A stretch of DNA of 64,000 nucleotides. It comes from Octopus vulgaris (Eukaryota). Below are positions 1 to 47,207 of the stretch, one piece after another. The notes beneath the pieces were generated by a model, which saw only the letters and a list, made by a program, of their open reading frames with translations, made no database searches and was not told the origin of the DNA. The DNA lies in the NCBI GenBank assembly GCA_951406725.2, contig OX597814.1, positions 206,088,001-206,152,000 of the forward strand, in the 5' to 3' direction. Every line of letters starts with the position of its first letter. Within the stretch, counting starts at the first letter, position 1. A program made the translations under genes and the position numbers.

Positions 1-22
1 TGTATATATATGTGTGTGTGTG

Positions 23-63
<41 letters not shown>

Positions 64-153
64 GTGTGTGTGTATATATATGTGTGTGTGTGTGTGTGTA
101 TATATATATGTGTGTGTGTGTATATATATATATGTGTGTGTGTGTATATATAT
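1..153. repeat. Compound (TG)n/(TA)n microsatellite
   Basis: Seen directly. Confidence 0.95.
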
Positions 154-319
154 ATTACCTGTTATATACTTTATATTATTTTTGTAATTTACTTAATCTT
201 TACTTTATAATTGTAATTTTAATTTTAACTTTTCTGATATGCAATTTTCTAGATGGTGTAATTTAATTGTTCATTTTGAATTGATAAAAGGTGGTTTTTT
301 TCTAATCTTTTATGTATAA

Positions 320-697
320 GCCTCTGGCTTCGGCCACGATTCGGATGGTGCTTTTTACGTGCCATCGACTGGCTTCCGTGTCGGTGGCACGTAAAAAGCA
401 CCATCCGAATCGTGGCCGAAGCCAGTGCCGCCTCGACTGGTTTCCGTGCAGGTGGCACGTAAAATGCACCAATCCGACCATGGCCGATGCCAGCCTCACC
501 TAGCACCAGTGCAGGTGGCACGTAAAAAGCACCCACTACACTTACAGAGTGGTTGGTGTTAGGAAGGGCATCCAGTTGTAGAAACATTGTCAGATAAGAC
601 CGGAGCCTGGTGCAGCCTTCTGGCTTCCCAGATCCCCGGTCAAACCGTCCAGCCCATGCTAGCATGGAGAACGGACGTTAAACGATGATGATGGTGA
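320..697 (+). mobile_element. RTE-type LINE 3' UTR fragment ending in (GAT)n, followed by (TA)n
   Basis: Matches the 3' end of the RTE copy at 14190-14378 (ggaagggcatccag...ccatgctagcatgg...ggacgttaaacgatgatg). Confidence 0.8.
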
Positions 698-1587
698 TAT
701 ATATATATATATATATATATATAGTGGTATAAATATCAACACAATTTTTCTCTCTTCCCTTCTCCAAACTCACAGACACCCACAAACACACACGCACACA
801 CACACACACACTTCCACAAAGCAATCATAAAAAGAATTCTTCTTCTCTAAACCCCAAAAAACATTTGACCATCCCTCATTAAACACACACACACTCTCTC
901 ACAATGATAAAAAGAAATATAATTTATGGTCTACCTTCCCACCACCACACACTCAGTGACACTGTGAAATGGTCAAAACTGAAATTCTTTTTTCCCCAAA
1001 AACAGACCCCAAAAATTATTTTCTTCTTTTTCCCTCTCCCTTCCTCTCTTTTTCTTTAGCACTCATCCCAAATACAAAAACACACACACACACACACACT
1101 AACATACACACATGTTCTCTCTCTCACTTTCTCCTCATCCATCACCCTCTTGTACTGTCTTATATTCCTCCTCACCACTACAAACTCAATACCACTATAA
1201 AATGGTCAAAACTCCTCACACATGAACTTAGTTTGATTTGAAAACCCCACTAGAATGGGAGAAAGCACTAATACATGATCTAAGTTATATGATGTATAAA
1301 ACATGTAATATACAAATAAATATCTGTAAATATAAACCATCCAATTTTCTGAGTACCTCATTTCTTCTAATATATAATACCTGTACATCATCTCCAAACC
1401 TTCCAATATATATATATATTAATAGTTATCGCCAAGCTAATATGGTAGTCCATAAATATAAGACTAAAGCTGCCGTTGATTAGCTCCAAGAGGCCATCGC
1501 CTCTAGCTAGCTATATGACACACGAACCTGTGTCCATTATAACCTTCAAACAGGGGAGGTCAGCCGCTTCCCCTTGCTGGTCAGACA

Positions 1588-1630
1588 TCTGCAGACATGT
1601 TTCAGGGTATTTGCCCTTTATCAATGCAGA
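1588..1630 (-). ncRNA. Mirror copy of the minimal hammerhead ribozyme (sense to the PARP14-like pre-mRNA)
   Basis: Exact reverse complement of 1653-1695 within the palindrome. Confidence 0.75.
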
Positions 1631-1652
1631 GTAGCCAGACCCAGCAGGCTAC

Positions 1653-1695
1653 TCTGCATTGATAAAGGGCAAATACCCTGAAACATGTCTGCAGA
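1653..1695 (+). ncRNA. Minimal type I hammerhead ribozyme (U3-A8 core variant)
   Basis: Stem I TCTGCA/TGCAGA; core TTGATAA; stem II AGGG-caaata-CCCT; GAA; palindromic stem III ACATGT; cleavage triplet GUC ending at 1689. Confidence 0.75.
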
Positions 1696-1955
1696 TGTCT
1701 GACCAGCAAGGGGAAGCGGCTGACCTCCCCTGTTTGAAGGTTATAATGGACACAGGTTCGTGTGTCATATAGCTAGCTAGAGGCGATGGCCTCTTGGAGC
1801 TAATCAACGGCAGCTTTAGTCTTATATTTATGGACTACCATATTAGCTTGGCGATAACTATTAATATCCAGTACCGCTGCCGTAGTCTCCTTTAGAGAGA
1901 CTTAGAAATTTTAATATTTCTATATATATATGTATATATATGTATTTTGTATATG

Positions 1956-2000
<45 letters not shown>

Positions 2001-2140
2001 TATATGATGGCCGTCCACTCGTGACCAAGGAAGACCATTGCTGACCTTCAGTAACATTGTATGCTCTAGGACTAACTTATATTTTGCATTTGTGGCTCTA
2101 TTGGTGAGTGACGAGGCCTGCTCTTGACAAGCGTACACGA

Positions 2141-2760
2141 CTGCAAACATTGCAGACCAAGCTTTCCCCATTAATATATATATGATGGGCTTCTTTCAGT
2201 TTCCATCTACCAAATTCACTCATGAGGCTTTGGTCAGTAGACACTCTTTCGTAGAAGACACTCTTTAAAGTATAGAGTTGGACTCCATGTAGCCACTGCA
2301 AACATTGCAGACCAAGCTTTCCCCATTAATATATATATGATGGGCTTCTTTCAGTTTCCATCTACCAAATTCACTCATGAGGCTTTGGTCAGTAGACACT
2401 CTTTAGTAGAAGACACTCTTTAAAGTATAGAGTTGAACTCCATGTAGCCACTGCAAACATTGCAGAAGAAGCTTTCCCCATTAATATATATATGATGGGC
2501 TTCTTTCAGTTTCCATCTACCAAATTCACTCATGAGGCTTTGGTCAGTAGACACTCTTTAGTAGAAGACACTCTTTAAAGTATAGAGTTGAACTCCATGT
2601 AGCCACTGCAAACATTGCAGAAGAAGCTTTCCCCATTAATATGTATATGATGGGCTTCTTTCAGTTTCCATCTACCAAATTCACTCATGAGGCTTTGGTC
2701 AGTAGACACTCTTTAGTAGAAGACACTCTTTAAAATATAGAGTTGAACTCCATGTAGCCA
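2141..2760. repeat. 155-bp tandem repeat, 4 copies, containing a SINE fragment
   Basis: Units start ctgcaaacattgcag at 2141, 2296, 2451 and 2606; each contains gggcttctttcagtttccatctaccaaat, the reverse complement of the SINE body at about 10745-10772. Confidence 0.92.
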
Positions 2761-3244
2761 CCTGATGGCAACTTTTCTCCCCCACCCATTTTGTAGGGGG
2801 TATTACTCATTTTTCTGGGCTCGTTTCACAGCTGTACCCTGTTCGAAATTTGGATTAGTTTTTGTATGAAAAGAAAAGGAACAGAGTGGGGCTTGATTGT
2901 AGTTTGTGGAGAAAACATTAAACATGCCTGAAAATAAAAACGTGGTCTTTCTCCCCAACTAAAAGACATGAAGAACTATGAAAGGAGGTGAATAAGTACT
3001 GGAGGTGGGAGGAAAGAAGAGAGAAGTAACAGTGGATTGTTCTAGAACTGCCAGAATGACAGTCTTGCCCTCTTCTTCATTGTTAAGAGTAAAGAAGCAA
3101 GGAAAGATCGATCGTATTCCAGTCTAATAGTCATTTTAAATGACTGAGGCTTTCCTTTCTCTGTCTCTCTCACTTCAATCCTTTTCTCTATGGTTAAGAG
3201 AGTGAAGGTGCTTAGGTGCATTCGGCCCATGATCATAAAGTCAC

Positions 3245-3505
3245 GAGAATGATTCCCTGCGGTGCACTGTGTTTTTGAGCAAGGTACTCTACTTCACTTT
3301 GCTGCAGTGTACTCAGCTTTCAAAAGTGAGTTGTCGCTGTAATTCAAAGGGGCCATCCCTGTAACATTCTGTGTGAGGCTGAATCTCCCTGAGATCTAAC
3401 TTATGGTATGCATGTCTGTGGAGTATTCAGCCACTTGCACGTTAATTTTATGAGCAGACTGTTTCGTTGATCAGATAAACAGGAACCTCATCATCATAAC
3501 TAATG
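3245..3505 (+). mobile_element. SINE (family also at 20153-20470 and 37933-38315 on the minus strand)
   Basis: Shared segment gtggagt(a/g)ctcagccacttgcacgttaatt...ggaaccctc in several dispersed copies. Confidence 0.65.
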
Positions 3506-4375
3506 GAATACCATTTTTCAAAAAGAGTGAAAAGAAAAGGAAATGCTCCAAATCGTAAGTCAAAAATGTCGTGTTTAGCATTATCAATGAAAGCTGAGAC
3601 GAAATTATTGCTATTCCGTCGTGTATTCACCCTCGACTCACACTCAGTTTGATAACAACAGCCTGTGATCTGGGGGCTTTGCCTCCTGATCTGTGAGGCC
3701 CACAAATGCCACTGTTATGATTGGATTAACATCCATATTGATCCTAAAGATTAAAATGATTTTCCTGCCCCTATATAAGATCTTTATTTGTTTTCTTCCA
3801 ATCACTTGAAGGTCTGTCTTGCTCCAGTTCCCTCAGCTGGCCAAAATGAGTTCTAGCTGTGTGAGGCTGAATTGCCCCCAGAACTACGTTAATAATATGC
3901 ATGACTGTGGAGTACTCAGCCACTTGCGAGTTAATTTTATCCTCGTGTGGTAATGAATAGCGAAAGTGACATCCAATATTTGCTGCAGTTATTTGCTTTG
4001 ATTTAACTACGTGTCTATGTATCAACTTTTCTTTGGATCTATGTATCTACTGTTTCTATCACTTTCTCTCTTTCTCTCTCACTTCCTCTGTGTCCCTCCT
4101 CTCTCCTGCTTTTGATTTAACAATGTGTGTATGTATGTATCAACATTAAAAACACAATACAAACACCAATCACTGCCTCTCACTCTCTCTCTCTCTTTCT
4201 CTCTCACTCTCTCTCTCTTTCTCTTATTCTCTCTCTCTCTTTCTTCCTCTCTGTCCTCCCCTCTCTTCTTTTTACCACTCACTTCTTTGCAGTAAGTGTG
4301 ACACACGCCACGCGTACATACGTACAAAAACCAACAAAACTAAGCGTATCAATGTTATTGATACTGATAATAATG

Positions 4376-5473
4376 TGATGCCGTACCAGGAAGTTGCTCT
4401 CTTGGCATCTGATCCTTAATGATTGGGAAGTGTTATCATCCACATTGTTTTGTCTTGGTATGAAAAGATGGGCTACAGCAAATATTCTGCTCAATGCCAC
4501 AGATTTGCTTGTCCTTAACCAGTTGAGCATGTCCCTTGATGGCTGACAATATGTGCATCTCTCATGAACAGAAGTAGTGGAGGAGCATTATAACCATGTG
4601 TTGAGAAAAATTCTTTGGGGTTTGGATAATTCACCTCTGAAACATGGAAACATGGGTGTTTTATTCATCATCCTTATAAAAACCTTGTTCAGTGACCTTT
4701 TGAGTGGGATGAGCTACTCGACCTGAAGAAAATTCTAACTAGGCCTCACCTGCAAGATCATGCCCTGTTTATCTTGATATGAGATCACCATGTTGTGCAC
4801 ATATAGTTGTGATGCATGTGCCTGGTGTACCTTTGTATATTTTACATCAGTGTCACTTTGACGGCATGCACTGTTCTTTCAATAACAACAACAACAATAA
4901 TAATATGCCCTGATGCAGTACCAGGCAGTGGCTCTCGTGGCTTCTGATCTTAACTGATTGGAAGTGATATCATGTACCTTATTTTGTCTTGCTATAAAAG
5001 ATGGGTTACAGCAAATATTCTGCTCAATACCACGGATTTGCTTGTCAGTTGTTTGACCTTAACCAGTTGAGCATGTCTCTTAGTGGCTGACGATATGTGC
5101 ATCTCTAATCATAAGAAGAAGTAGTAGGGGAGCATCATAACCATGTGGTGAGAGGGATTCTTTGGGGTTTGAATAATTCACCTCTGGAAACATAGGTGTT
5201 TCGTTCAACATCCTTAACCCTTATTTGGGGACCTTTTGAGCAGGATGGGTTACTCGACCAGAAGAAAATTCTAACTGGGCTCCACATGCAAGGTTATGCG
5301 CTGTTTATCTTGATATGAGATCACCATGTCGCGCACATATGGTTGTGATGCATGAGCCTGGTGTACCCTTATCAGATGGGTAGTCATGATGGGTATTCTG
5401 GGCTTCATATATTTTACCCCAGTATCACTTTGATGGCATGCACTACTCTCTCACTCAATAATAATAATAATAA
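4376..5473 (+). repeat. Two adjacent diverged copies (about 4376-4905 and 4910-5473) of an interspersed retroelement-like repeat ending in (TAA)n/(CAA)n
   Basis: Both copies begin tgatgc.gtaccagg and share colinear blocks through ...tcactttgatggcatgcact...aataataat. Confidence 0.75.
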
Positions 5474-5489
5474 TTTGATGAAGCCATTG

Positions 5490-5990
5490 CCCTTACTGTG
5501 AATGAATGCTCTCAACTTGCCCCAAACCAATATGAGTTGTGGTGACATGATGAGGTTACAAAAGTGCTGCATTGGAAAGTATGAGGAAAGTTGGGGTTAG
5601 AGGGAAGCAAAACATGGTACAAACAGAAACCACAGAGTATCACAGAGTCAGAGACCTGTAAAATCTTGTGGGATTTTTCAATGCAGAAAGGGCCAAGTGC
5701 TTGAGTACAACAAGCCAGGCCTGGTCGTTGTGGACAAGGTGAACCACATGTGCTCTATAACTGATGTTGCATACGTATTTGACCCACAATTAGTTAGGTG
5801 AACAAGTAGACAATCCTCTTAAATGTGCTTGACCGTGAAAGATGGAGATAATTCTAATTATTATTGGGGCCCTGGGGACAGTATCAGAAGATATTAAGAG
5901 GAAATGAGGACAGAGCGCCGAGTAGAGCTGTTACCAAAAGTCTGCCTCCTTGTCACAGCCATTATCATCAAGAAAATATTACATGGCTGA
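5490..5990 (+). pseudogene. Decayed R4/Dong-type non-LTR retrotransposon C-terminus (restriction-like endonuclease region)
   Basis: ECSQLAPNQY..*HDEVTKVLHWK...WYKQKP...KILWDF...YNKPGLVVVDK....ITDVA..D and IIIGALG, with stops and frameshifts; adjacent to (TAA)n. Confidence 0.7.
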
Positions 5991-6126
5991 ACAGAAGAGA
6001 TAGCATGGTACCACAGGCTGTGGATAGCAAGCCTCCAGGAGTTCCAACAAAACCTGAATTAAAACAATGCTAATAACTGACTCTGATAGGTAGACTAGAC
6101 AAAGAGAGGAGAAAAAAATTACTTAC

Positions 6127-6360
6127 CACACGGCTCTTTAAAACTTATAATGTAAGTATCAGAGGTTTGTTGTTGAAATGAAGAAATATTTCCACCAGAA
6201 CTTTTTTTTCTGTTTCCAAAATAACTTTTAAGAATCTCAGAGCTGACATTTGAAGAAACGTTTTTCACTTGAACACTGTTTATTTCCTTAATTCTATCCA
6301 CTTTCAGTTGATTTCCTTTTAAGGGGTTGTTTTGGCACATCCTCTGAACATACTCAAAAT
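6127..6360 (-). CDS. PARP14-like: PARP14-like gene, internal coding exon (234 nt, phase 1-1); gene continues beyond the left edge of the window
   Basis: Acceptor tttattgcag at 6361, donor G|GTAAGT at 6126; DFEYVQRMCQNNPLKGNQLKV...VQVKNVSSNVSSEILKSYFGNRKKSSGGNI...YIISFKEP, a second YFxNxKKSSGG RRM-like repeat. No macro, WWE or ART domain exon is visible, so orthology is not proven. Confidence 0.82.
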
Positions 6361-6525
6361 CTGCAATAAATACAATGAATGGAAATACATTTTGGTAAAA
6401 GAATCAAATTGAAGTCAATTTACTGATGTTTTAACACATTTTAGATTGAAATGATTTTGAGAATTCTTCAAATTTGGAGATTTTAGCATTAAAATGCAGT
6501 TCCAATTATTTAACAACTCCATGTG

Positions 6526-6961
6526 GGCACAGGTGTGGCTGTGTGGTAAGATGGTTGCTTCCCAGCCATATGGTTTGGGGTTCAGTCCCACTGTGTAGCA
6601 CTTGGATAAAATGTATTCTACTATAGCCTTGGGCTCACCAAAGCCTTATGAGTGGATTTGGTGGACGAAGACTGAAAGAAGCCATCTGTCTGTCTGTCCG
6701 TCTGTATGTTACTGTTTCCTTGCCTGTTGCAAACGAGTGTCCCTGTTATACAAGCAGTGTCCTTCATTTCCAATCTTCCTTAAAACATGTCTGGTCACTG
6801 GGAAACATTACCTTACTTGGAAATAGGTGAGGGTTGGCAACATGAAGGGCATCCAGCTGCAGAAATCCAACTCATCATCAAATTTTGTCCAACCCATGCA
6901 AGCATGGAAAAGTGGACGTTAAAACAGTGATGATGATCATGATGATGGTGATGATGATGAT
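6526..6961 (+). mobile_element. tRNA-headed SINE with RTE-type 3' tail and (GAT)n
   Basis: Head ggctgtgtggtaag...ggttcagtccca (A/B-box-like); tail gaagggcatccagctg...ccatgcaagcatggaaaagtggacgttaaa...gatgatg. Confidence 0.7.
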
Positions 6962-7404
6962 GTGTCCTTTAGTTAATGTTTACTCATCCTTAAATGTTAA
7001 AGGTATTTCTATTTAGGGATAAGTAAAGTGTAAAACGTAAGAAACAAAATTTGACTGAGCAGATTTATGATGAAAGACAATCCAGCCATGACCATTCCAA
7101 TATCTAGAATGGTAGCTTCTGTTTTGAAGAAGGCAGGGTGTAATGGGAGGGATACTTTCCTGCTATTTCTATCAGCCTGAGCAACTGTGTAAAGGTCTTC
7201 AGATCATTAAAAGTGTGTGTTTTAAGGTAGAGATGGGAATTTCAACATTTCTCGTCTGGGCTCATTCTTGTATTCTAGAATATTGTACATGACAATATCA
7301 GAGACAAGTTAGAGATGAAGTTATTTAGACAAAAAAAAAAACAAAACAAAAACAAACTATTTCACTAAAAATACATATAACTACCCAACCATTTCTAAAG
7401 ATAT

Positions 7405-7740
7405 ATCATCATTTAAGTTCTGTTGTCCATGCTGGCATGGGTTGGACGGTTTGACTGGGCTGACATGCTGGAAGGCTGCATCAGACTCCAGTCTGATTTG
7501 GCATGATTTTCTTTGGCTGAATGCCCTTCCTAACGCCAACCACTCCGAGAATGTAATGGGTCCCTTTACATGCCTTGATGGATCTTCCAAAACATGACAT
7601 AATACCAAAAATCTTGGTCATTGCCTCTGTGAGGCCCAACGCTCGAAAAGAATTCAGCCACTTTGCCTCCGTGAGGCCCAACATTCAAAGGATGCTCTTT
7701 ATGTGTCACCAGTTCAGGTGCACTTGGCTTGACGGATCCT
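7405..7740 (-). mobile_element. RTE-related 3' end fragment
   Basis: Reverse complement of the shared 3' end (ccatgctggcatgggttggacgg...gcccttcctaacgccaaccactcc). Confidence 0.65.
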
Positions 7741-7789
7741 CTCAAGCACAGCACATCCCCAAATGTCTCTTGATTTCAAATTGTGACAC

Positions 7790-7985
7790 AAGGCCAGCAA
7801 TTTGGAGGGAAGGGTTAGTTGATTGCATCGACCCCAGTAATCAGCTGGTATTTATTTTTTTGAACCCTGAAAGGACGAAAGGCAAAGTTATTCTCAGCAG
7901 AATTTGCACACAAAGCATGAAGACAGATGAAATGCAGTTAAGCATTTTGTCCAGCATGCTAACATTTCGACCAGCTGGCCACCTT
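7790..7985 (-). mobile_element. SINE with Deu/Nin-like core (related copies at about 15900-16060 and 16690-16820)
   Basis: Dispersed copies share gaccccagt...ctggta...ttgaccc(c/t)gaaaggatgaaagg.aaa.ttgac.tc.g..gaatttgaac. Confidence 0.55.
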
Positions 7986-8587
7986 CTTCGATTTCGATAT
8001 TTATTGAAAGTTATCAAAGCAAGAAGCAGTGTGTTAAATATACTTGCTGCTCTCATTTTCTACCATGGAATATCTTCTTGTAAACTAAAGAGAAGATTCC
8101 ATCACCATGTAGAAGACAACTTCATGATGCAATGGTTCATTTGTAGATGTTCTCCCCTCTCATCCCATCGTCACAACAACAATCACTATAGTTCTTAATG
8201 ACTTATATTAGCACCAGGTATACTCAACACAAACACAGCTGTCTCCTCTCTTCTCATAAACCTTACAATGTATCTCCTCACCACCACCACCCCATACTGA
8301 CCCCTCTTTCTAATGACCACTGTATCCAAACATCAATGATTGACAATTCTCCAAAACTTGCCTCTTTTTCCTGCAGACCATTGACTAATACAACCAGATC
8401 AATCTCATCAATGAAGGAGTTTGACCTTCAAAAGGTCAAGGCTGTTGACCCTTTTACCTCACAATATATCGACCAGTTGCCCTCTCTTCTTCTTCACTGA
8501 GCCATTTAAAAAAACAACAACAAATTTTGATGGTTTATCTGTTTGTCATTCTTCTACATCATCACAACAAAATGTCTATTTTAACAA

Positions 8588-8740
8588 TATCATCATCATC
8601 ACCATCATGATGATGATGATCATCATCATCATCGTCATCATCATCGTCATCGTCATCATCATCGCCACCATCATCATCATCATCACCATCACCACCACCA
8701 CCACCACCACCATCGTCATCATCATCATCATCATCATCAA
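8588..8740. repeat. (CAT/CAC)n trinucleotide microsatellite
   Basis: Seen directly. Confidence 0.95.
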
Positions 8741-9264
8741 CAAGCCAAAACTAGCAAAGGGAGCTTTGAAAGCAAATGGCAAATAAAGTAACTAAACTCT
8801 TGTCTCTCTAAATAAACTCCAGGATCTATTCTACTGTCTTTTCTATCACTGCTATGAGGGTCCCTGTTTCGTCTCTCTGGTTGATTTTATACCATTGCCA
8901 TTCAGGCTCTTTGATCCACTCATTGTTCCGTCTTATGTCACCCTTCTTGTATCCAACTCCATCCCCTCAATTATACCAGATTCTTTCTCCTTTGAACACC
9001 GGTCCTCTGCAATCCTTGCCTCATCTCCCTATTCATCAGTTCAAAACAATACTTTAACAGCATCAACAGGGTGTAAGGCAATGGACAACACACACATGCA
9101 CACACAGCAGCATAGAAACACAGGTAGAAAGAAGGTGTGCAGAGAATTGAGATGAGTCAGGGTAAGGATGAAGAATATAAAGATTCCAGAAGATGTTAAG
9201 AAATGCAAAGAAATGAGAATGCAGAATGTTTAACCCCTGAACATTTAAACAGGCCATATCTACT

Positions 9265-9785
9265 AGCGGGGTGCAAAGAGCACCATACGAGTGTGATCGT
9301 TGACAGAGCGGCTAACCGGCATCCGTGCCAGTGGCACATAAAAGGCACCAATTCGAATGTGATCGTTACCAGCGTCGCCTTACTGGCACTTGCGCCCATG
9401 CTAATAGGGTGCCAAGAGCACCATCCGAGCATGATCGTTGCCAGAGCAGACAACTGGCTTCTGTGCCAGTGGCACGTAAAAGGGCACCATTCGAGCGTGA
9501 TCATTACCAATGTCACCTTACTGGCACCTGTGCCAGTGGCATGTATAAAAAATTTGTGCAAGGTTGCCAGTACTGCCTAACTGGCCACTGTGCCGATGGC
9601 ACGTAAAAGCACCCATTACACTCTCAGAGTGGCTGGCATTAAGAAGGGCATCCAGCTGAAGAAACTCTGCCAGATCAAGATTGGAGCCTGGTGCAGCCAT
9701 CTGGTTTGCCAGCCTTCAGTCAAAATCGTCCAACCCATACCAGCATGGAAAGCGGACGTTAAACGCTGATGATGATAATGATGAT
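9265..9785 (+). mobile_element. RTE-family 3' UTR fragment with internal ~65-bp repeats and (GAT)n tail
   Basis: Repeated caccat.cgag..tgatcgtt units followed by the shared RTE 3' end. Confidence 0.75.
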
Positions 9786-10612
9786 ATCTGGCCTCTTACA
9801 CCAACCATACAATATCATTCTAAAAATTAACAATTACCTCGTCAAAATTCCAAAGCTATGAGATAATGCATGATTAATACGAAATGATGTGAATAAATAA
9901 GCAGAACGCTTGACAGGTTAATCTGAATGCTAAAGAGTTAAGGAATGCTCTGAATTATAAAGATGAAAGTGCTAGAAGAAAGAAGAAATGTTTCAGAGTC
10001 TGTAATGAGAAATGGTAAATAAAATGGAGAGGTGAAACAACAGACAAAAGAAAAAATCACACCAACCGAATATATAATCCTGTGTGGAAAGTCCTTTGTA
10101 GAATTTTATTGATTTGAAAATTTTAGTTTGATGTGTTCAATATTATGAGAGTATCATTACTCAACATATTTGTTTTATATTGAAACTATAATTAAAAGTA
10201 AAAGACAGGCAGACCTGTGCATGTGTTTATCATTGGCACAATGATCCTCCCAAAACACACAACATAGATTTTGGTTTAGAATTAAACTATATATTTATTT
10301 TATTATTCTGTAATATGCATTTACAAGGTAAAGACTCAGTTTTCTTTTCGTTTTAGATAGAAATTACATTTGTAACAAGTTCCCTCTATCAATCAAACAA
10401 AGATGGTAAAATATTCCATTTACTTTCCCTCTTTCCAATGTTTAGAAACTGAAGGAATGGTCAAATACTGGAATCAGTTCCACTGATAAAACATTGTCTC
10501 TAATATTTCTGATTTCCTGCCTGATAACCATCATTCCTGACAAATTTCTTTCTTTCCTGATAAATGTGAGAAACCAAAACGCAAAATCTGGGAAGAAATA
10601 AAAGATATAAAT

Positions 10613-11010
10613 AGGTGCAGACAAGGCTGTGTGCTAAGAAGTCTACTTCCCAAACACATGGTTCTGGGTTCAGTCCCACTGCATGGCACCTTGGGTGAGA
10701 ATCTTCTACTGTAGCCTCAGTTCAACCAAGGACATTGTTAGTGGATTTGGTAGATGGAAACTGAAAGAAGCCCAGTATGTGTGTGTGTCTTTGTGTCTAT
10801 TTGTTACCCGCTACTGCTTGATGACTGGTGTCAGTGTGTTTGTGTTCCTGTAACTTAACAGATCAGCAAAATGGAGTGATAAAATAAGTTTCTAGGTTTT
10901 AAAAAGTAGGAACCACTAGGGTCGATCCTTTTGACACAAAAAGATCCTCAAGGTGGTGCCCCAGCATGGCCTGAGTCATTAGATTAAAACAATTAAAACA
11001 CAAAAGATAT
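10613..11010 (+). mobile_element. tRNA-headed SINE, full length, with a non-RTE tail
   Basis: Same head as 6526 and 21997; tail ...aaggtggtgccccagcatggcc...aaaagata. Confidence 0.7.
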
Positions 11011-11079
11011 ACCAATCCTATTAACAAAACAAAATTCAAGAAATCTTTTTCAGAACAAATCAAACTTGAAGAAACTTAC

Positions 11080-11316
11080 CAATTTCACTTTGGCAGTACA
11101 CAAGAAAAGTTCCAGGTTTTCTTCCAGAGGAAACATATACAATATCTAATTTTCCTGTCTTTTCCAAAAAATCAATTAATGTTTTTTCCGATATGTCTTT
11201 GGGGCCATTTGACACAATCATTGCATCTTCTTGCCAGACTAGATTTTTATACCAGTCCACATGAAGTTTACATCTGCTTATGTTATGGACCTTCCTTTGG
11301 ACAACATTTTCTGCAT
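11080..11316 (-). CDS. PARP14-like: PARP14-like gene, internal coding exon (237 nt, phase 1-1)
   Basis: Acceptor attttcag at 11317, donor G|GTAAGT at 11079; open frame DAENVVQRKVHNISRCKLHVDWYK...PKDISEKTLIDFLEKTG...FLVYCQSEI, in frame with both neighbouring exons. Confidence 0.82.
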
Positions 11317-12016
11317 CTGAAAATCAAAATAGCAGAAGAAATTGAGAATATAATGTCATTATTTATGAGTGGAGGGCATGGTTGTGTTGGTGTAGAACCA
11401 GGTCAGACACTTTCTGGCCATAAACATGTCCAAGTGTTCTTCCTTGTTTAAGATGTTAGATGGTACATGAAGAAGATCTGCCTTTTCTAGCAGATCAAGT
11501 CATCACTTAGAGGCCCCTTTGTTTGTTCGATAGCCAAGAGGATTATGAGGTTCCCTGTACAATTAACTGGCTCTAGTTCAACAGCACCTTGAGCAAGTAT
11601 CTTCTACCATAGCCTCAAGATGACCAGGGCCTTGTGACTGATATTTGGAAGACAGAAACTGTGGACATCATAGGATGTGTGTGTGTGTGTGTGTGATCAG
11701 ATAAATATATACACACATATGTGTATACACACATACAGTACTTAGAGGAAACAGTAGTCATTCACAAAGACAATTGCCAATAAAAAGCTTTATCCTGAGC
11801 AGACCAATATGTAAACCTATTTTCCAAATAAAGAGTAGAATATTTGAATATCAGAATATGTCAAAACACTTAATGAAGTGCACTGCAAAATTTCAATTAA
11901 AACTAGTCCCTTAATGAAAAGAGAGACTCATTATCTTCATGACAGACTCATGTCAAGAAACGAGACGAATATAACCTTGAAATTTAAATTTTTATAAATA
12001 AAAAACAATATTTATA

Positions 12017-12049
<33 letters not shown>

Positions 12050-12053
<4 letters not shown>

Positions 12054-14378
12054 AGAGTCTGCCGAATGTTGACCCAACAGAGGGACCAGCTATCCGAGTT
12101 GATAGTTCCATGGTAGCTAAGGCAATTAGAAGCATGAAGACAGGGAAAGCCCCAGGCCCATCAGGAATTACTGCAGAGATGCTCAAAATATCTGGCAGTG
12201 TCGGCTATAACCTAGTCACCCGTATAGTCAACCAGGTGATACACGAAGGAGTCATACCCAATGACTGGTGTAGCAGCATACTAGTCAACTGCTACAAAGG
12301 TAAAGGTGATGCCCTAGATACAAATAATTACAGAGGTATCAAGCTGTTAGATCAGGTAATGAAGGTTACGGAGAGGGTCATAGCCCAACTAATTAGAGAG
12401 AGAGTTAGTTTAGATGAGATGCAGTTTGGGTTTGTCCCAGGGAAAAGCACCACTGATGCTATATTCCTGGTAAGGCAGCTGCAGGAGAAATACCTAGCCA
12501 AAGATAAGCCCCTGTACCTGGCTTTCGTTGACATGGAGAAAGCCTTTGATAGGGTCCCCCGATCCCTCATCTGGTGGTCAATGAGGAAACTAGGGATAGA
12601 TGAATGGCTGGTGAGGGCTGTGCAAGCCATGTACAGAGATGCCGTAAGTAAGGTTAGAGTTGGCAACATGTACACAGAAGAATTCAAAGTAGAGGTAGGG
12701 GTCCACCAGGGTTCAGTACTCAGCCCCCTCCTATTTATCATAGTCCTCCAGGCAATTGTGGAGGAATTCAAGACAGGTTGCCCCTGGGAGCTCCTCTATG
12801 CTGACGACCTCGCTCTAATTGCTGAGTCACTATCAGAACTGGAGGAGAAGTTCCAGGTGTGGAAGGAGGGTTTAGAATCGAGGGGCCTTAGAATCAACCT
12901 AGCTAAAACCAAAGTACTAATAAGTAGAAAAGTAGACAATCCACAAATATCCTCAGGAAGATGGCCCTGCTCGATCTGTAGAAAAGGTGTAGGTAGAAAC
13001 TCTATAAGATGTACCCAGTGTAAGCTATGGACACATAAGAGGTGCAGCAATGTCAAAGGTAGGCTAACTGGGAAGATAGTTTTTGTATGTGGCAGATGCT
13101 CTGGAGCATTGACCTCCGAAAATCTGCAGAAAACAACTTCCGTCACTTTCCGGGGGAAAAACTAGAAGTAGTTGATAGCTTCCGCTATCTAGGTGACCAA
13201 GTCAGTAGTGGGGGTGGGTGCGCTGAAAGTGTAACTGCTAGAATAAGAATAGCCTGGGCAAAGTTTAGGGAGCTCTTACCTCTGCTGGGGACTAAAGGCC
13301 TCTCGCTCAGAGTAAAAGGCAGACTGTATGATGCATGTGTACGAACAGCTATGCTACATGGCAGTGAAACATGGGCTGTGACTGCTGAGGACATGCATAA
13401 GCTCGTGAGGAACGAAGCCAGTATGCTCCGATGGATGTGTAATGTCAGTGTACTTACTCGACAGAGCGTTAGTACCTTGAGAGAAATGTTGTACCTAAGA
13501 AGCATCAGTTGTGGTGTGCAAGAGAGACGATTGCGCTGGTATGGTCATGTGGCGAGAATGGATGAAGATAGGTGTGTGAGAAAGTGCCAATCCCTAGCAG
13601 TTGAGGGAACCCGTGGAAGAGGTAGACCCAGGAAAACCTGGGACGAGGTGGTGAAGCACGACCTTCGGACGTTAGGTCTCACCATGGAAATGACTAGAGA
13701 CCGAGACCTATGGAAGTATGCTGTGCGTGAGAAGACCCGGCAAGACTAGTGAAGCCATAACCCGTGGCCCCTACCTGGGACGTAGTCAGTCCACCTGTGC
13801 ATACCTTCCTTCTTGTGACACTTGTGAAGACCTGTTGAGGCAAGTGAGAATCGAATCAAATCAAATCAAATCGAACCAAATCAAAATAGATGAACATCAA
13901 TGGAATTTGTATCCTTGTGGTACCAGTGCCGGTGGCACATTAGAAAACCATCCGAACATGACCGTAGCCAGTACCGCAACGACTGGCCTCCGTGCTGAGG
14001 GCACGTAACAAACACCATCCGAGCGTGACCGTCCGCCAGCCTCGTCTGGCACCTGTGTCGGTGACACATAAGAAAACACCATCCGAGCGTGGCCGTCAGC
14101 CAGCCTCGTCTGGCACCTGTGTCGGTGGCACATAAAAAACACCATCCGAGCGTGGCCGTCTGCCAGCCTCGTCTGGCACCTGTGTCGGTGGCACATAAAA
14201 TCACCCTCTACACTCTCGGAGTGGTTGGCGTTAGGAAGGGCATCCAGCTGTAGAAACACTGCCAGATCTGACTGGCCTGGTGCAGCCTTCGGGCTTGCCA
14301 GACCCCAGTTGAACCGTCCAACCCATGCTAGCATGGAAAGCGGACGTTAAACGATGATGATGATGATGATGATGATGA
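12050..14378 (+). mobile_element. 5'-truncated RTE-clade LINE (RT + PHD-like finger + 3' UTR + (GAT)n), inserted in (TA)n
   Basis: ORFs 12020-13165 and 13087-13749 contain KAPGPSG, QFGF, AFVDMEKAFD, GVHQGSVLSPLLF, LLYADD and RGRGRPRKTW; one frameshift in a G run at about 13152; TA repeats on both flanks. Confidence 0.95.
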
Positions 14379-14405
14379 TATATATATATATATATATATA
14401 TATGT

Positions 14406-14511
14406 ATTGGCCTGCTCACTTAGCCAGCGGGGTGGCGTCATTTGAAGGCTAAAACGATGCGAAGCGCATTGTGACCAGCGATGTGTAGCAGCATCTGATA
14501 GCCTGGTCGGT

Positions 14512-14520
<9 letters not shown>
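14406..14520 (+). repeat. Short interspersed repeat fragment between (TA)n tracts
   Basis: GC-richer 115-bp island ending ggtcggtcacgtgata, flanked by TA microsatellite; family not assigned. Confidence 0.4.
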
Positions 14521-14554
<34 letters not shown>

Positions 14555-15231
14555 TATATATATATGCCATTTGATATTCATTCAGGTTAAGCTGAAGGCA
14601 GGAATTTAGCAACAGAGAGACAACTCCAAGCATGTTTCAGTGTTGAGACCTCTTCGTTATAAAAGCCTACCCATGACCGCCAGATTGTTGATGACTAAAG
14701 AATTTTAATGAGTGGATACGGAATGGTGTGACAACTTGGAATAGAACACTGCTCTACAGTTTCTCTATTGTACCTCCTTGATCGCACTTTAGCCTTTCAA
14801 CACCTAGCATAACCCCTAAATAACCCTTTCGGTTCCTCACTCCATTTAGTAGAAGGAGTGTTTTTCTTTTTTTTTTCTGTCTTGGACATTACTAGGCCAC
14901 CTCACTAGTAATGACAGCAGGAAAATTGCCCCCAGTTCACTCTGTAAAGTGGTTGGTATTAGGAAGGGCAATAGAAACCTTGCTAAAGCTGACCCTAGAG
15001 GTCAATGCTGCTCACCAGATCCTGTCAAACTATTCAATGCAAGCAAACATGGAAAATGAATGTTAAATGACAATGATGATGATTTTTAACATTGCTTTAT
15101 ATTAATCTAATGTGTTTACAGTAATTACATACAAATTGTCCAACCTATGCAAGCATGGACAACAGATATTAAATGATGACAATGATGATGTCTGTAAATG
15201 ATTTCATGAAATAAAGAATATTTCTTCTAAC

Positions 15232-15400
15232 CTTTTTCCGATTCAAAAGTGATAATAACTTCCTCAGAATCTTGGATCCGTTCTGGTTTTCCTTTAATAG
15301 GTCCTCCACTTGATCTCTTCTTGTTCTCAAAATAAGACTGAATGGCTTCCAAATGGAAATCAGTTGGGACTCCTGACACCAATATCCGTTCTGCCCTCAT
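15232..15400 (-). CDS. PARP14-like: PARP14-like gene, probable first coding exon (RRM-like domain 1); whole exon is 15232-15430, ATG at 15400
   Basis: Translates MRAERILVSGVPTDFHLEAIQSYFENKKRSSGGPIKG...VIITFESEK. The YFxxxKRSxGG motif is typical of the PARP14/PARP10 N-terminal RRM-like domains. Acceptor tttgcag at 15431, donor G|GTTAG at 15231 (phase 1), joins the next exon in frame (K-D-A-E-N-V). Confidence 0.8.
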
Positions 15401-17070
15401 CTTCTCCTTCCATACTCGAGGCAGATATTCCTGCAAAATAAAACCAAGATTTAATGCTAGACAAATACAAGTTACTCACCATCCATGTAACAATACTGTG
15501 CTATCCACATCATAAACATCCACTTTACATGTCTGATGTAAACCTGAAATACATGTAGCCTTCAAACAGTCCAGATATGCTAGAAGTAACAGCCAAAGTT
15601 TTTCAAAAGTTCACCCAGTTATTTTTAAAATAGACCAAATACACTTGCCAAAATCGTTTTGTCTTGAGAATATCTGCAAAGAAATTATGGCATTCCTGAT
15701 TGAACAATGCTAATTTCACTCTCAGAAACCAGAGTTCTAACATATGTCCATGAAATCTGAAAGTCACACTTCTCAGCTTTAAAATCTTTAAAAAGATGTT
15801 TTGCAATAAAACAGCCAAACAAATGCCACCAAATGATGCCATTTAGTATGACAAACTTCACCGAAATACACATTTTCCAAACAATTCTTTCTTCAATAGG
15901 CACAAGGCTTGAAACTTTGGGGGAGAGGTTAATCAATTAGATAAACCCCAGTGTATAACTGGTACTTACTTTATTGACCCTGAGGAGATGAAAGGTAAAA
16001 TTGACCTCAGTGGAATTTGAACCCAGAACATAAAGATGGATGAAATGTCACTGAGCATTTTGTCCACATTTTCCAAACAATGACAATGACCACAACAACA
16101 ATAACAACCAAAAGTACCAATCTGATAAGCCTGATTAATGCCACAACATCATATAGAATACATTCAACAAAAGAACACCCCAACCATTCACCCACCAAAC
16201 TAAACCAGGTGAACCTAATTTATAAATACTGCTTTGTGTTGGGCCCTTAATTCCTTGATAGGGTTGTATGGGGCACTATGGTCAGAAATGGCATGTCTTG
16301 GGTATTTTTAGACCCGGAGGGACCAGGGGATGTGGTGATTTGCTGTACTTGAAAAGTCATGTGAAGCTAAGTAAAATCGCTGCCTTCCATACATACAGAC
16401 TTGTCCTTTCATGGGTGGGTGCCACATAAAAATACACCCTTGCCAGTGGCATGTAAAAATCACCCAGCACATTCTGTTAAGTGGTTGACATTAGGAAGGA
16501 CATCCAGCTGTAGATACCATGCCACAACAGACAACTGGAGCCTGGCCAGCTCCAATACAAACAATCCAACCCATGCCATCATGGAAAGAGGGCATTAAAC
16601 AATGATGTCAAGGCCATCCTTCTGCAAGAATGACCAAAACTGGTTTCTTCTAAAAAGAGGGAGAGAGAAACAGAAAGAAAAAGTGAGAGGCTGAGAAGAA
16701 TTGACCCCAGTACTTTGTTTATTGACTCCAAAGTGATCAAAGACAAAATTGATTTGAGCGTCGCAAAGAGTCAGAAGGATTGCCACAAAGCAACCTATCT
16801 GGTGCTCTACTGACTCTGTGACTTGACCACCTCATAAACACAACAGAAATCACCTAAAAACAAGTTTATGTCACTAAAACATGCTGTCTTTACACATAAC
16901 ATTTTCTCTCACGATAATTCAGAAACACTTTTTACAAACCACAACACAGGACACCTCAAATATTTAATTAAATTGTTTATAACAAAGATAGCGAACCAGA
17001 GCAGAGATTGAAAAACTTTCAGGGCACTAACCAAAAACAGAAAAATCAGAAAACATCAATCTTATAGAAA

Positions 17071-22148: not shown

Positions 22149-25100
22149 ATCATCATCATCATCATCATCATTTAACGTCCGCTTTCCATGCTAGCATGGG
22201 TTGGACGGTTCAACTGGGGTCTGGGGAGCCCGAAGGCTGCACCAGGCCAGTCAGATCTGGCAGTGTTTCTACAGCTGGATGCCCTTCCTAATGCCAACCA
22301 CTCCGAGAGTGTAGTGGGTGATTTTATGTGCCACCGACACAGGTGACACAGGTGCCAGACGAGGCTGGCTGACGGCCACGCTCGGATGGTGTTTTTTATG
22401 TGCCACCGACACAGGTGCCAGATGAGGCTGGCGAACGGCCACGATCAGATGGTGTTTGTTACGTGCCCACAGCACGGAGGCCAGTTGATCCGGTACTGGC
22501 TACGGCCACGTTCGGATGGTTTTCTTGTGTGCCACCGGCACTGGTACCACAAAGATACAAATTCAATTGATGTTCATCTATTTTGATTTTGTTTGATTTT
22601 CACTTGCCTCAACAGGTCTTCACAAGTGTCACAAGAAGGAAGGTATGCACAGGTGGACTGACTACGTCCCAGGTAGGGGCCACGGGTTATGGCCTGACTA
22701 GTCTTGCCGGGTCTTCTCACGCACAGCATACTTCCATAGGTCTCGGTCTCTAGTCATTTCCTTGGTGAGACCTAAAGTTCGAAGGTCGTGCTTCACCACC
22801 TCGTCCCAGGTTTTCCTGGGTCTACCTCTTCCACAGGTTCCCTCAACTGCTAGGGTGTAGCACTTTTGCACACAACTATCTTCAGCCATTCTCGTCACAT
22901 GACCATACCAGCGCAGCCGTCTCTCTTGCACACCACAACTGACGCTTCTTAGGTTCAACTTTTCTCTCAAGGTACTTACACTCTGATGATTATGAACACT
23001 GACATTACACATCCATCGGAGCATACTGGCTTCATTCCTCACGAGCTTACGCATGTCCTCAGCAGTCACGGCCCATGTTTCACTGCCATGTAGCATAGCT
23101 GTTCGTACACATGCATCATACAGTCTGCCTTTTACTCTGAGCGAGAGGCCTTTAGTCACCAGCAGAGGTAAGAGCTTCCTAAACTTTGCCCAGGCTATTC
23201 TTATTCTAGCAGTTACACTTTCAGCGCACCCACCCCCACTACTGACTTGGTCACCTAGATAGCGGAAGCTATCAACTACTTCTAGTTTTTCCCCCCGGAA
23301 AGTGACGGAAGTTGTTTTCTGCAGATTTTCGGAGGTCAATGCTCCAGAGCATCTGCCACATACAAAAACTATTTTCCTAGTTAGCCTTCCTTTGACATTG
23401 CCGCACCTCTTATGTGTCCATAGCTTACATTTGGTGCACCTTATAGAGTTTCTACCTACACCTTTTTTACAGATCGAGCAGGGCCATCTACCTGAAGTCG
23501 TTTGTGATTGGTCCACCTTCCTACTTATTAGGACTTTGGTTTTGGCTAGGTTGATTCTAAGGCCCTTCGATTCTAATCCTTGTTTCCACACCTGAAACTT
23601 CTCCTCCAGTTCTGATAGTGACTCAGCAATTAGAGCAAGGTCATCAGCATAGAGGAGCTCCCAGGGGCAACCTGTCTTGAATTCCTCCGTTATTGCCTGG
23701 AGGACTATGATAAATAGGAGGGGACTGAGGACTGAACCTTGGTGGACCCCTACCTCAACCCGGAATTCTTCACTGTACTCGTTGCCAACCCTCACCTTAC
23801 TAGCAGCGTCTCTGTACATGGCTCGCACAGCTCTCACTAACCATTCATCTATCCCTAGTTTCCTCATTGACCACCAGATAAGGGATCGGGGACCCTGTCA
23901 AAGGCTTTCTCCAAGTCAACAAAAGCCAGGTACAAGGGCTTATCTTTGGCTAGGTATTTCTCCTGCAGCTGTCTTACCAGGAATATAGCATCAGTAGTAC
24001 TTTTCCCTGGCACGAACCCAAACTGCATATCATCTAAGCTAACTCTCTCTCTAATTAATTGAGCTATAACCCTCTCCGTAACCTTCATTACCTGATCCAG
24101 CAGCTTGATGCCCCTGTAGTTATTTGTATCTAGGGCGTCACCTTTACCTTTGTAGCAGTTGACTATTATGCTGCTACACCAGTCATTGGGTATGACTCCT
24201 TCGTGTATCACCTGGTTAACTATACGGGTGACTATGCTATAGCCGACACTACCAGATGTTTTGAGCATCTCTGCAGTAATTCCTGATGGGCCAGGGGCTT
24301 TCCCTGTTTTAATGCTTCTAATTGCCTTAACTACTAAGGAGCTGTTAACTCGGATTGCTGGTCCCTCTGTTGGGTCCACATTCAGCAGACTCTCTTTATC
24401 CCATTCATTTTTCTCATTCAGCAACCTTTCATAGTGGCGTCTCCAAGCCTCTCTCTTTGCATCCTCATTTAGCGCAAGTGAACCGTCATCCTTGCGAACA
24501 CATTTCTCTCCTACCACATCACGATTCTCTCTCACACACTGTCTTGCAACACGAAATACCTCAAGTCTTTCATCCTCACAGCACAGGACATTGGCAAATT
24601 TTTTCTTATCTGCTTCCCCTCTGGCTAGATAGACCTGTCTCCTAGCTTCCCTTCTGGCAGTCTGATACACTTCCCTGCTACCACCGTTCTTCCAGGCCTT
24701 CCAAGCCTGTTTCTTTTGTCTAATAGCCCTGTCAACAATATTGTTCCACCACCACGTTATTTTGGGTCTTAAGGGGACTTTGCACCAGCCACAGATCTGG
24801 TCAGTGGCTTTCAGCAGGTTGTCCCTCAGAAGCGTCCAGTTGTCTTCTACCCCATGCGTAGCTATACCCCCTTCCATTTCGTCAAAGGCTTCAAGTAACA
24901 TGTCTCTAAATCTCTGTCCATTCGCAGGGTCTTTAAGCTTCCAGACCCTTCTTCTCCATGTTGGTCGCCCTCTTATTCCTGATCCTAAAGTCACTAACTA
25001 CCAGTCTATGTTGTGGGGTGCATTCTTCGCCTGGGAAGGTTTTGGCATTTATAAGCAGCCATCTCTCCCTTTGCCTGGCAAGGATGTAGTCGATTTGGCT

Positions 25101-26300
25101 AGTATGCCGGCCCAATCGGTAGGTGACTAGGTGGCCTGTCGGTTTCCTGACGTTAGTGTTGCAGACCATAAGACTATTCGCATCGCAGAACTCCAGCAGC
25201 CTGGTTCCCTCCTCGTTGCGGGAACCATAACCGTAGCCTCCATGTACGTCATGGAAGCCCCCAGCATGTCGTCCAACATGCCCATTGAAATCACCAGCCA
25301 CAAAGAGAAGGTCCCTGTCGTTCGTCAATGAGGTGGTCTGCAATAGGGTGTCATAGAAACTGTCTTTCTGTCCATCGGGTAGCCCTGGCTGAGGGGCATA
25401 GGCCGATATAATGGTTGCTAATCTATTATGAAGCACTCTTCTAATCTTAAGTATTCTGTCACTTACTCTGATTACCTCAATTACTCTATCTACCCATTTC
25501 TCAGCGATAAGTATACCCACGCCACCAACCCCGTCAGTGTTCCCTGCCCAGAAAATCTTGTACCTGTGTTCCTTGCCTGTGAGGAGCCTAGCAGATCCTC
25601 CTCTCCACCTTATTTCTTGCATGCAACATACATCAACAAATCTCCGTTCAAGCATCTCGACTATCTCGCCAGATCTACCTTTCAGTGTGCCAACGTTGAG
25701 GGTGTGGAAGGTATGGGCCCGAGAGGCCCAGGGACGGGGAGCAGTGGCGTCATGTACCTGAAAAGAAGAAAGCTCGCATTTGGCAGAATTGATAAGCAAA
25801 GCAATGATCTTAAGTTCAACCTGTTACCCTACACTATCATGTTTTGCGCTGTATGGTCACCACCTTATATAGAAGGGGTGGTATTGGCTTAAGGCCTTTA
25901 GGTGTTCATGGAAGAAAAGCAAAGGAAGACAAGGTGAGATAAGGACTTCCGGTACAGGTGGAGGGGGCGGGAGGGCGGGCGCACCGCGCACTGGGAAAAG
26001 ATGAGATTTAGGCGGCAGAAAGACAAGATTTGAGACGAAATGCTTTGCGGTCGTGTGAATAAGTTTCTATGAGTGAAAGTTGGGAAAGATGGGGTAGAGA
26101 TTAAGCGACAGAAAGACCAGATTTGAGACGAAATGTTTTGCGGTCGTGTGAATAAGTTTCTGTGAGTGAAAGTTTATATGCTTCAGCTAGCATTTGAGAC
26201 GAAAGACAACGATAACGATAATAAAAGGGGAAACAATAAGGCTTGATGGTGATAATAATACTTGCAAAAATACAATGAAAGGAGGAAACAGGTCGGAAAC
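22149..26300 (-). mobile_element. Apparently full-length RTE-clade LINE (~4.15 kb): 5' UTR, APE endonuclease, RT, PHD-like finger, 3' UTR, (GAT)n; two frameshifts
   Basis: ORF 24933-25799 (TLNVGTL, MQEIRW, SAYAPQ, GDFNGH, QIDY), ORF 23864-24994 and ORF 22698-23867 (YADD); (CAT)n on the plus strand at 22149-22171; ~90-bp direct repeat in the 5' UTR (about 26005-26173). Confidence 0.95.
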
Positions 26301-40528: not shown

Positions 40529-41080
40529 AACGTGAAGAGAAACATTTTCTTTTAATTAGTTTTATTATATAAATATAACATTTTATATTATTTACAGTAG
40601 GAGAGATAACTTGTCGTGAAGCATTTTAGCCATTTTGAAATGTGGCGCGAATTGGCAATATGACGTAATGTCTTTGCCGAAGAATTATAATTTTCGTTTT
40701 TTCCATTGGTTAATATAACTGCTCATATGAAGATTCTAAAAGTTTCGTAAAGAATATTTGTCATGGATTTCGATTCTTTTTAGTCAAGTTGAGCAGTTAT
40801 AAAAACCCTGGATTTTGGGAAAAATTTCAGTGTTTGTTGGATGTCACTGAACTCCACGACACTCACTCTTTTGAGACATCGGTAATTTTCATGCCATGTC
40901 TAAGTTAATCACAAGTCTATTTTGATTTGTTGGCTAATGTATTAGCTAGAATTGAGAAATTAGTTAATGAAATTATAGTCGTTTTTCTTCACGACAAAGT
41001 TATCTTTCCTACTGTAAATAATATAAAATGTTATATTTATATAATAAAACTAATTAAAAGAAAATGTTTCTCTTCATGTT
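40529..41080. repeat. ~93-bp inverted repeats flanking a ~370-bp duplicate of 39670-40040 (also 53253-53803)
   Basis: 40529-40621 is reverse-complementary to 40987-41080; the enclosed segment is a direct copy of the upstream block. Confidence 0.85.
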
Positions 41081-41139
41081 AATAATAATAATAATAAGAA
41101 GAAGAAGAAGAAGAAGAAGAATATGAATAATAATAAGGA

Positions 41140-41173
<34 letters not shown>

Positions 41174-41219
41174 AAGAAGAAGAAGAAGAACAACAACAAC
41201 AACAACAAGAACAAGAAAG

Positions 41220-41251
<32 letters not shown>

Positions 41252-42070: not shown

Positions 42071-42121
<51 letters not shown>

Positions 42122-42714: not shown

Positions 42715-42762
<48 letters not shown>

Positions 42763-43318: not shown

Positions 43319-43319
43319 A

Positions 43320-44839: not shown

Positions 44840-45399
<560 letters not shown>

Positions 45400-45821
45400 A
45401 CTGGGAACGGAAGTTGACAGGAAGACGATAGAGAGACATTCAGAGTCGTTGAAGTAGGAAGAGGAAAAGAAAGAGGCAATAAGATAAAATGAGAAAAAGT
45501 GAGAGAGAAGACGAAGCAATGGGGTCATGGAAAATAACTCATATGAATAGTGGTGTGACAACGTAAACAGTATGAATATAATAATGCATTTGTAACGCAT
45601 GCTAGACAGCTCCGTCTTTCTAAAGTGGAACTAGTTAGCCATCTCAGGTGATAAATGACACAAGCATTTCAATAAACCATTTTTGATTTATATTTCACAT
45701 AAAAGCATATATATGGAAATATATTATTATCATTATTATTATAATTATTATTATTATTATTAATATTATTATTATTATTGTTATTATCGTTATTATTATA
45801 GTTATTATTATTATTATTATT

Positions 45822-47175: not shown

Positions 47176-47207
<32 letters not shown>

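Follow-up and report, generated by a model that had tools for sequence, protein, structure and literature searches.

The 64,000-nt window of the Octopus vulgaris genome analysed here (contig OX597814.1, positions 206,088,001 to 206,152,000) carries two hammerhead ribozyme motifs on opposite strands. In the reading that we consider very probable, two partial units of an approximately 361-nt non-LTR retrozyme lacking an ORF were inserted here head to head, likely by a Penelope-type reverse transcriptase (RT) priming on both cut ends of a (TA)n run, with the ribozymes predicted to be masked by a hairpin. Both hammerheads would then belong to a single young insertion of a high-copy octopus repeat that is short and non-coding, likely pasted in by Penelope machinery. 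The U3-A8 core, the inverted Penelope ends and the retrozyme class are already known; the part not met with in the literature consulted is the insertion footprint across the family. The value lies in this family, with hundreds of young copies bearing Penelope-type ends and a one-site-per-strand rule, and this end pattern offers a handle on the agent that mobilises animal retrozymes.

Hammerheads and insertion layout in the window

The plus-strand hammerhead (1653-1695) and the reverse complement of the minus-strand one (1588-1630) are a single 43-mer, which parses into a 6-bp stem I, a UUGAUAA core, a 4-bp stem II with loop CAAAUA, GAAA, a palindromic stem III (ACAUGU) and a GUC triplet. C17 of the triplet lies at 1689 on the plus strand and 1594 on the minus strand, and cleavage is predicted after these positions. 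The core features of a type I hammerhead are all present, with paired 3-8 (here U3-A8), G5, A6, A9, GAAA and an NUH triplet (UUGAUAA/GAAA/GUC). An earlier note on this DNA had described two mirror-image type I hammerheads with a U3-A8 core, and both its coordinates and its parse hold. A type I descriptor allowing any 3-8 pairing found only these two sites on the two strands of the 64-kb window.

Helix I goes on beyond 1653/1695 through a UAC/U internal loop, which was predicted in all five folds examined, from three families. On the minus strand the hammerhead with this natural extension (the internal loop, then further helix) spans 1575-1646; the plus copy retains only the first three extension pairs (1647-1699). 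The internally looped helix I points to the canonical metazoan type I architecture rather than the minimal form of Penelope-like elements (PLEs). The minimal PLE hammerhead has a helix II of 7-8 bp, a helix I of 4-5 bp, an unpaired base between 9 and 10.1 and G10.1-C11.1 (PMC4209133), whereas the octopus motif has a looped 6-bp helix I, a 4-bp helix II, no extra base after A9 and A-U at 10.1-11.1, so the earlier label of a minimal Penelope hammerhead does not apply. Nor is the U3-A8 core new: natural U3-A8 cores, active in vitro, were published in 2011 (PMC3088659), and U3-A8 in Penelope hammerheads, with a search descriptor, in 2014, including about 1,300 U3-A8 matches in Schistosoma mansoni and opposite-strand pairs 100-700 bp apart (PMC4209133). 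The octopus motif shares with these the U3-A8 pair, the palindromic stem III and the occurrence as pairs on opposite strands.

Rfam returned no hammerhead match for window positions 1-8000, where only hairpin-driven miRNA matches below the gathering score appeared, and no hammerhead model matched 1638-1925 at E ≤ 10. A sister-family copy with a canonical core was likewise missed, so the Rfam non-match is a weak test.

The mirror symmetry extends far past the ribozymes. A perfect 221-bp inverted repeat occupies 1416-1867, its arms (1416-1636 and 1647-1867) 100% identical and separated by a 10-nt spacer. Mapped on the natural family monomer L011, the minus-strand partial unit (1416-1649) covers positions 128-361, with its 3′ end leftward at a first fixed end site, and the plus-strand partial unit (1647-1923) covers positions 141-361 and then 1-56, its 3′ end lying at a second fixed end site. 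The plus copy exceeds the inverted repeat by 56 nt (1868-1923); this "tail", which separates the two fixed 3′ end sites, is found on one arm only. At the inversion junction (1634-1649) the spacer (1637-1646), which is natural family sequence on the minus strand, is combined with a 3-nt GCC/GGC microhomology. Remnants of a (TA)n target lie to the left (1406-1415) and, as an interrupted run, to the right (1921-1985). Both arms carry a variant found in only three of 30 young segments, two of the three being these arms, and the nearest other copy is 99.1% identical. Judged from sequence, the arm identity and the rare shared variant suggest a single template molecule or a very recent event. The putative promoter stretch of the unit (57-127) is missing from both arms. 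No RNA data set was listed as holding the sequence, and in four sequencing runs, searched as contigs only and with family copies mixed, no contig spanned the junction.

The insertion lies within a PARP14-like intron, as the earlier note had placed it. Minus-strand exons are found at 6128-6390 (approximate bounds), upstream of the host intron, and about 5.6 kb ahead of the window start, and the intron is about 11.7 kb long. The exon immediately beyond the window edge has its closest named relatives among the PARP14-like proteins of O. vulgaris and O. sinensis. Further PARP14-like exons on the minus strand lie at about 11081-11317 and about 15233-15431, and the series, part of a paralogue cluster, runs from 6128-15431 (−) to as far as 12 kb before the window; no PARP catalytic-domain exon was found within 20 kb before the window.

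The retrozyme family and its sister families

The family hammerhead pattern has 474 exact matches genome-wide, against 0 for a reversed control, and the window arm gave 52 scored matches among 2881 candidates. Copies are circular permutations, mapped on L011, of an approximately 361-nt unit without an ORF. They occur as dispersed partial monomers, 361-365-nt dimers and one 2.6-mer. Each unit has a single hammerhead, an arm holds at most 2.6 units, and the GC content is 0.42. The predicted 361-nt circle is strongly self-paired (z −6.9). Tandem units within about 150-450 nt, a type I hammerhead in each, GC below 45% and a lack of coding capacity, the unit looping back on itself with no family ORF at the window locus, are the hallmarks of a retrozyme, and by these sequence features the family is a non-LTR retrozyme.

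Insertions were compared at 73 loci; after seven duplicates were dropped, the remaining 66 gave 71 hammerhead-holding insertion chains. The loci were chosen by arm similarity or by hammerhead-holding patterns, and the fractions given here apply to them, not genome-wide. Arm lengths vary from 43 to 943 nt. Thirty-four chains are head-to-head and 37 have a single orientation. The back-to-back ribozymes of the earlier note are not supported as a functional pair; their layout is the one that Penelope-type insertions commonly show, with the 5′ end inverted. Outer ends fall at unit positions 353-361 or 49-66 in 92 of 105 cases, defining two fixed end sites 56 nt apart. Eight of the head-to-head chains were set aside, one end lying elsewhere; in the other 26 both ends are at a fixed site, and the two ends occupy different sites in 22 of them (binomial p = 0.0003 against even odds) and the same site in four. 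Junction overlap is 0-5 nt in 23 of the 34 head-to-head chains, and 52 of 64 scored ends adjoin TA-type runs, with two false motif matches included in the 64. Two fixed 3′ ends bounding a tail, an inverted 5′-truncated copy and an AT-rich microsatellite target together form a Penelope-type insertion signature, and the link of these hammerheads to Penelope, drawn in the earlier note, is supported.

The 5′ ends are scattered, with only 4 of 105 within 7 nt of the predicted cut; this fits a circular or an uncleaved RNA and shows no use of the cut. Comparison of within-locus and between-locus identity does not separate a circular from a tandem template. Among 31 BLAST-chosen segments the core diverges less than the rest (3/403 versus 129/5146, p = 0.025), a weak difference with CpG and subfamily variants uncorrected.

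A sister-family pattern with a C3-G8 core gave 662 matches (control 0). The sister monomer, of about 365 nt, aligns end to end with the retrozyme unit at 57% identity, scoring 215 against a shuffle maximum of 125, and among 21 sister loci examined all eight head-to-head ones use one site per end. A tail-end motif with a hairpin had 1026 pattern matches (control 0), and 17 of 30 such loci carry a hammerhead 102-108 nt downstream, representing several further families. Diverged sister families show which RNA features are kept: the ribozyme, the stem III palindrome, the tail, the hairpin and a TATA-like box. Sister copies at loci L156-L185 and L217-L246 have C3-G8 cores, many of them with U4C (CCGAUGA), and the tail-end motif and hairpin lie about 105 nt upstream of the core.

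Across 130 distinct hammerhead contexts the 3-8 pair is U-A in 81 and C-G in 49, the latter class coming in part from a pattern that required C-G, with zero mismatches; C17 is present in all 130. A single C3-A8 mismatch occurred among the first 100 matches of the family pattern. Since the C3-G8 sister families are homologous and have different stems, the U3-A8 covariation is real. Compensatory changes are seen at pairs 1, 2, 3 and 6 of stem I and pair 4 of stem II, counted on a core-anchored parse because MAFFT, given 20 hammerheads, aligned stem III wrongly from one family to another. Stem III takes five palindromic forms (ACAUGU, ACUAGU, ACGCGU, ACACGUGU and ACAUGCAUGU); it is a perfect palindrome in 90 of the 130 contexts, self-pairs with G-U in 13 and is imperfect in 27, a single central base being unpaired in 22 of these. 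The palindrome is preserved through double changes (AU to UA or GC). This speaks for pairing of one ribozyme with another, as a stem closed by its own hairpin loop would not require a palindrome. Three helices with helix I open, covariation in stems I and II and the palindromic stem III forms thus identify a type I hammerhead. The earlier note had read the covariation as a sign of selection for activity and had named conservation in other genomic copies among its checks; those copies show the compensatory changes and the kept palindrome, and the 3-8 covariation between homologous families bears the reading out for the family's source copies, to which selection on the ribozyme would apply.

Proposed mobilisation and Penelope-like elements

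In the mechanism we propose, a source copy longer than one unit would be transcribed from a start 25-30 nt behind a TATA-like box (near unit position 117). The multimeric RNA would self-cleave to monomers, likely as stem III-swapped dimers, and the monomers would probably be ligated into circles. A Penelope-like RT/GIY-YIG protein, acting in trans, would nick both strands of a TA run, one cDNA beginning at each of the two internal sites 56 nt apart; where each cDNA ended would vary, and the two would be joined by way of a short stretch of complementary bases. In the window, the top strand would have been copied from 361 back to 128 and the bottom strand from 56 back to 141, meeting at GGC/GCC. 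An arm of more than one unit continues across both the cut site and the putative start, and this requires a circle, uncleaved multimers or template jumps. Our analysis leans towards a circle, since mussel retrozymes of like size (350-390 bp), which self-cleave and accumulate as circles, are mostly circular (PMC7229834). Counting against self-cleavage, eight of nine Xenopus retrozyme dimers stayed uncleaved in vitro (bioRxiv 10.64898/2026.07.22.740005).

The footprint resembles that of known PLEs. PAc, the sole purified PLE protein, is a predicted dimer that cuts AT-rich DNA and extends both of its strands; it begins synthesis at two sites within the RNA, and these define a tail. A point against is that its hammerhead works only together with protein and that insertion in vitro can proceed without that hammerhead (PMC11167929). 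In PLEs generally, an inverted 5′ copy and a tail on one side only are the rule (PMC8557442). The octopus insertions share with those of PLEs and PAc an inverted 5′-truncated copy, a tail at one end, two fixed 3′ ends, an AT-rich microsatellite target, a hammerhead upstream of the ends and copies of more than one unit, but the octopus unit has no ORF and its tail is 56 nt rather than 30-40 (PMC8557442, PMC11167929). Like animal non-LTR retrozymes, it is a short non-coding monomer (361 nt, compared with 350-390 bp in mussel) with a canonical type I hammerhead per unit, tandem copies, a self-paired predicted circle and coexisting PLEs; it differs in its U3-A8 core and in that the copies seen in the genome are dispersed monomers to trimers, often head-to-head and with Penelope-type ends (PMC7229834, bioRxiv 10.64898/2026.07.22.740005). 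PLEs have been named as the likely mobiliser of retrozymes because the two occur together and retrozymes resemble pLTRs, and the sections consulted of those two reports do not settle the mechanism. In our partial coverage of the literature we found nothing on octopus retrozymes, Penelope-type retrozyme ends or Tx1-type elements at hammerhead repeats, and the main text of the O. vulgaris repeat annotation, as available, contains neither "ribozyme" nor "retrozyme" (PMC13282606), though its repeat library may list the family. The mover of animal retrozymes, and whether its template is a circle, become testable with the existing purified-PLE assay.

Searches for an autonomous partner yielded 148 matches to a GIY-YIG family, of which 30 loci and 13 longer stretches were compared, and 147 matches to a second PLE clade, of which 20 loci and one full unit were compared. 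These 64 PLE loci of two clades had no pLTR or end motif in common with the retrozyme and only three neighbouring insertions. Among the listed ORFs none coding for RT/GIY-YIG was linked to the unit, which does not classify as an autonomous PLE. One abundant, intact PLE (L136:279-5170 and L139:141-4960), a young family with a unit of about 4.7 kb, carries a 781-aa RVT_1 plus GIY-YIG frame preceded by an overlapping 479-aa frame; from its CxxC linker we take it to be Neptune-like. Its pLTR hammerhead has the UUGAUAA (U3-A8) core and ACAUGU palindrome of the retrozyme, and it likewise has (TA)n targets and inverted copies, but its stems differ, its tail is about 33 nt rather than 56, and no further DNA similarity was found. 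Cross-pairing between the ribozymes of this PLE and of the retrozyme is conceivable from their sequences. The second clade (L247) has an ORF of about 900 aa in 3.6-kb tandem units, with many intact copies, and no hammerhead with at least four stem I pairs was found near the RT in 19 of the 20 loci scanned. Widely spaced hammerhead pairs were considered as candidate full-length PLEs; those fetched held ORF1-only units or separate insertions.

The arms might instead be the 5′-truncated pLTR ends of an unsampled autonomous PLE, the 361-nt circle being only a common deletion form. All the insertion marks are indeed PLE marks, Xenopus retrozymes are homologous to pLTRs (bioRxiv 10.64898/2026.07.22.740005), and the intact PLE just described shares the core and palindrome. 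We nevertheless regard this as improbable: in the 73 loci the sequence behind the tail leads back into the following hammerhead unit, no full-length element came from the widely spaced pairs that were fetched, no RT ORF among those listed is linked to the family, and the 64 PLE loci show no similarity to it.

The non-LTR retrozyme reading can be extended, tentatively and with somewhat less than even confidence, to the octopus superfamily as a whole. Its insertions may record mobilisation by a Penelope dimer on one circular 361-nt RNA, with one cDNA per DNA strand from the two sites 56 nt apart, rolling through the ligated ribozyme junction. The tail-plus-hairpin motif common to sister families would then be a putative enzyme binding site, and ORF1-only Tx1-type elements would repeatedly hit the retrozyme start and ride as cargo of about 1.75 kb, forming a three-tier parasite chain.

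Predicted silencing, passengers and neighbouring repeats

Read-through RNA from either strand of the window locus is predicted to form a hairpin of −447 kcal/mol. On either strand the antisense arm is transcribed before the ribozyme, and in folding the pairing probability of stems I and II is above 0.8 for an arm alone and 0.0 with the antisense arm, so the ribozymes are predicted to be masked. The claim that either strand, if transcribed, carries one ribozyme is therefore not supported. In this model the ribozymes are locked in the 221-bp hairpin and likely silent, and the window copy is likely a dead end. In a PARP14-like pre-mRNA it is predicted to be a long dsRNA rather than a cutter, and possibly an editing or Dicer substrate; octopus is known for heavy A-to-I editing. 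The case cautions that insertions of the inverted Penelope type would silence the ribozymes they carry and place perfect dsRNA inside introns.

The contrary case, in which the hammerheads are active and cut the PARP14-like pre-mRNA, or divergent transcripts begun at the junction, seems very unlikely. Both copies retain the intact core and internal loop, each arm alone folds its stems, and the locus is intronic; against this stand the early antisense arm with its abolished stem pairing, the absence of the putative promoter stretch from both arms, and a stem III that likely needs a tandem partner, the two copies here being on opposite strands. Slightly less likely again is that the perfect symmetry comes from a fold-back, made either once the insertion was in place or during assembly (by self-priming of cDNA, gene conversion or a chimeric long read). 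The identity of the arms, their rare variant and the 99.1% identity of the nearest other copy would suit it, as would a junction that fits a 3-bp hairpin with a 10-nt loop. However, the plus arm holds 56 family bases absent from the minus arm and so is not a copy of that arm alone, which rules out pure fold-back; the flanks also differ, and many other loci, whose arms have diverged, repeat this asymmetric layout. If a strand did fold back at the junction, this could belong to the joining step and would leave the head-to-head retrozyme insertion as the main reading. A perfect inverted repeat at a TA site would also suit a DNA transposon of the MITE or fold-back kind whose terminal inverted repeats are 221 bp long; this was rejected as having almost no likelihood, given arm lengths and junctions that vary by locus, 37 of 71 insertions in a single orientation, and units that are tandem and circularly permuted.

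Some retrozyme copies alternate with units of about 1.75 kb that code only for an ORF1-like protein (about 450 aa, with a weak zf-CCHC match) and that we take to be of Tx1 or half-L1 type. They were seen at L062:196-3900, L061, L076-L105, L147-L152, L186 and L193, with hosts that include retrozymes of at least three families. Among the 30 loci most like one ORF1, some of them lying in a shared array, the 3′ end could be located in 25: 15 were followed by a hammerhead within 95 nt, two by a degenerate hammerhead, five by another unit and three by other DNA. Direct repeats of about 11-21 nt that match the host border each unit, and the units sit 25-30 nt behind a TATA-like stretch, including in three non-retrozyme hosts. 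On a tree of the 25 units the host type changes six times (minimum 3, shuffled 10.9), which indicates both repeated insertion and co-inheritance. Several distant ORF1-only arrays had no hammerhead, and one array precedes an APE-RT element. Tx1 elements are known to target other transposons and to form tandem insertions (PMC4494074). The insertion site of the octopus units supports a transcription start near unit position 117.

Other repeats in the window include a unit of about 160 nt in four tandem copies (2130-2760) and two opposed RT-coding LINE copies, at 12002-13865 (+) and 22149-25823 (−), which are 91-97% complementary over about 2 kb and presumably of RTE type. A low-complexity block with a 9-15-nt repeat is apparently duplicated at a spacing of about 12.8 kb (about 41000-53700 and 53700-64000). 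A further repeat at 330-690, with an internal hairpin at 341-408, is one we assume to be a common octopus SINE-like repeat.
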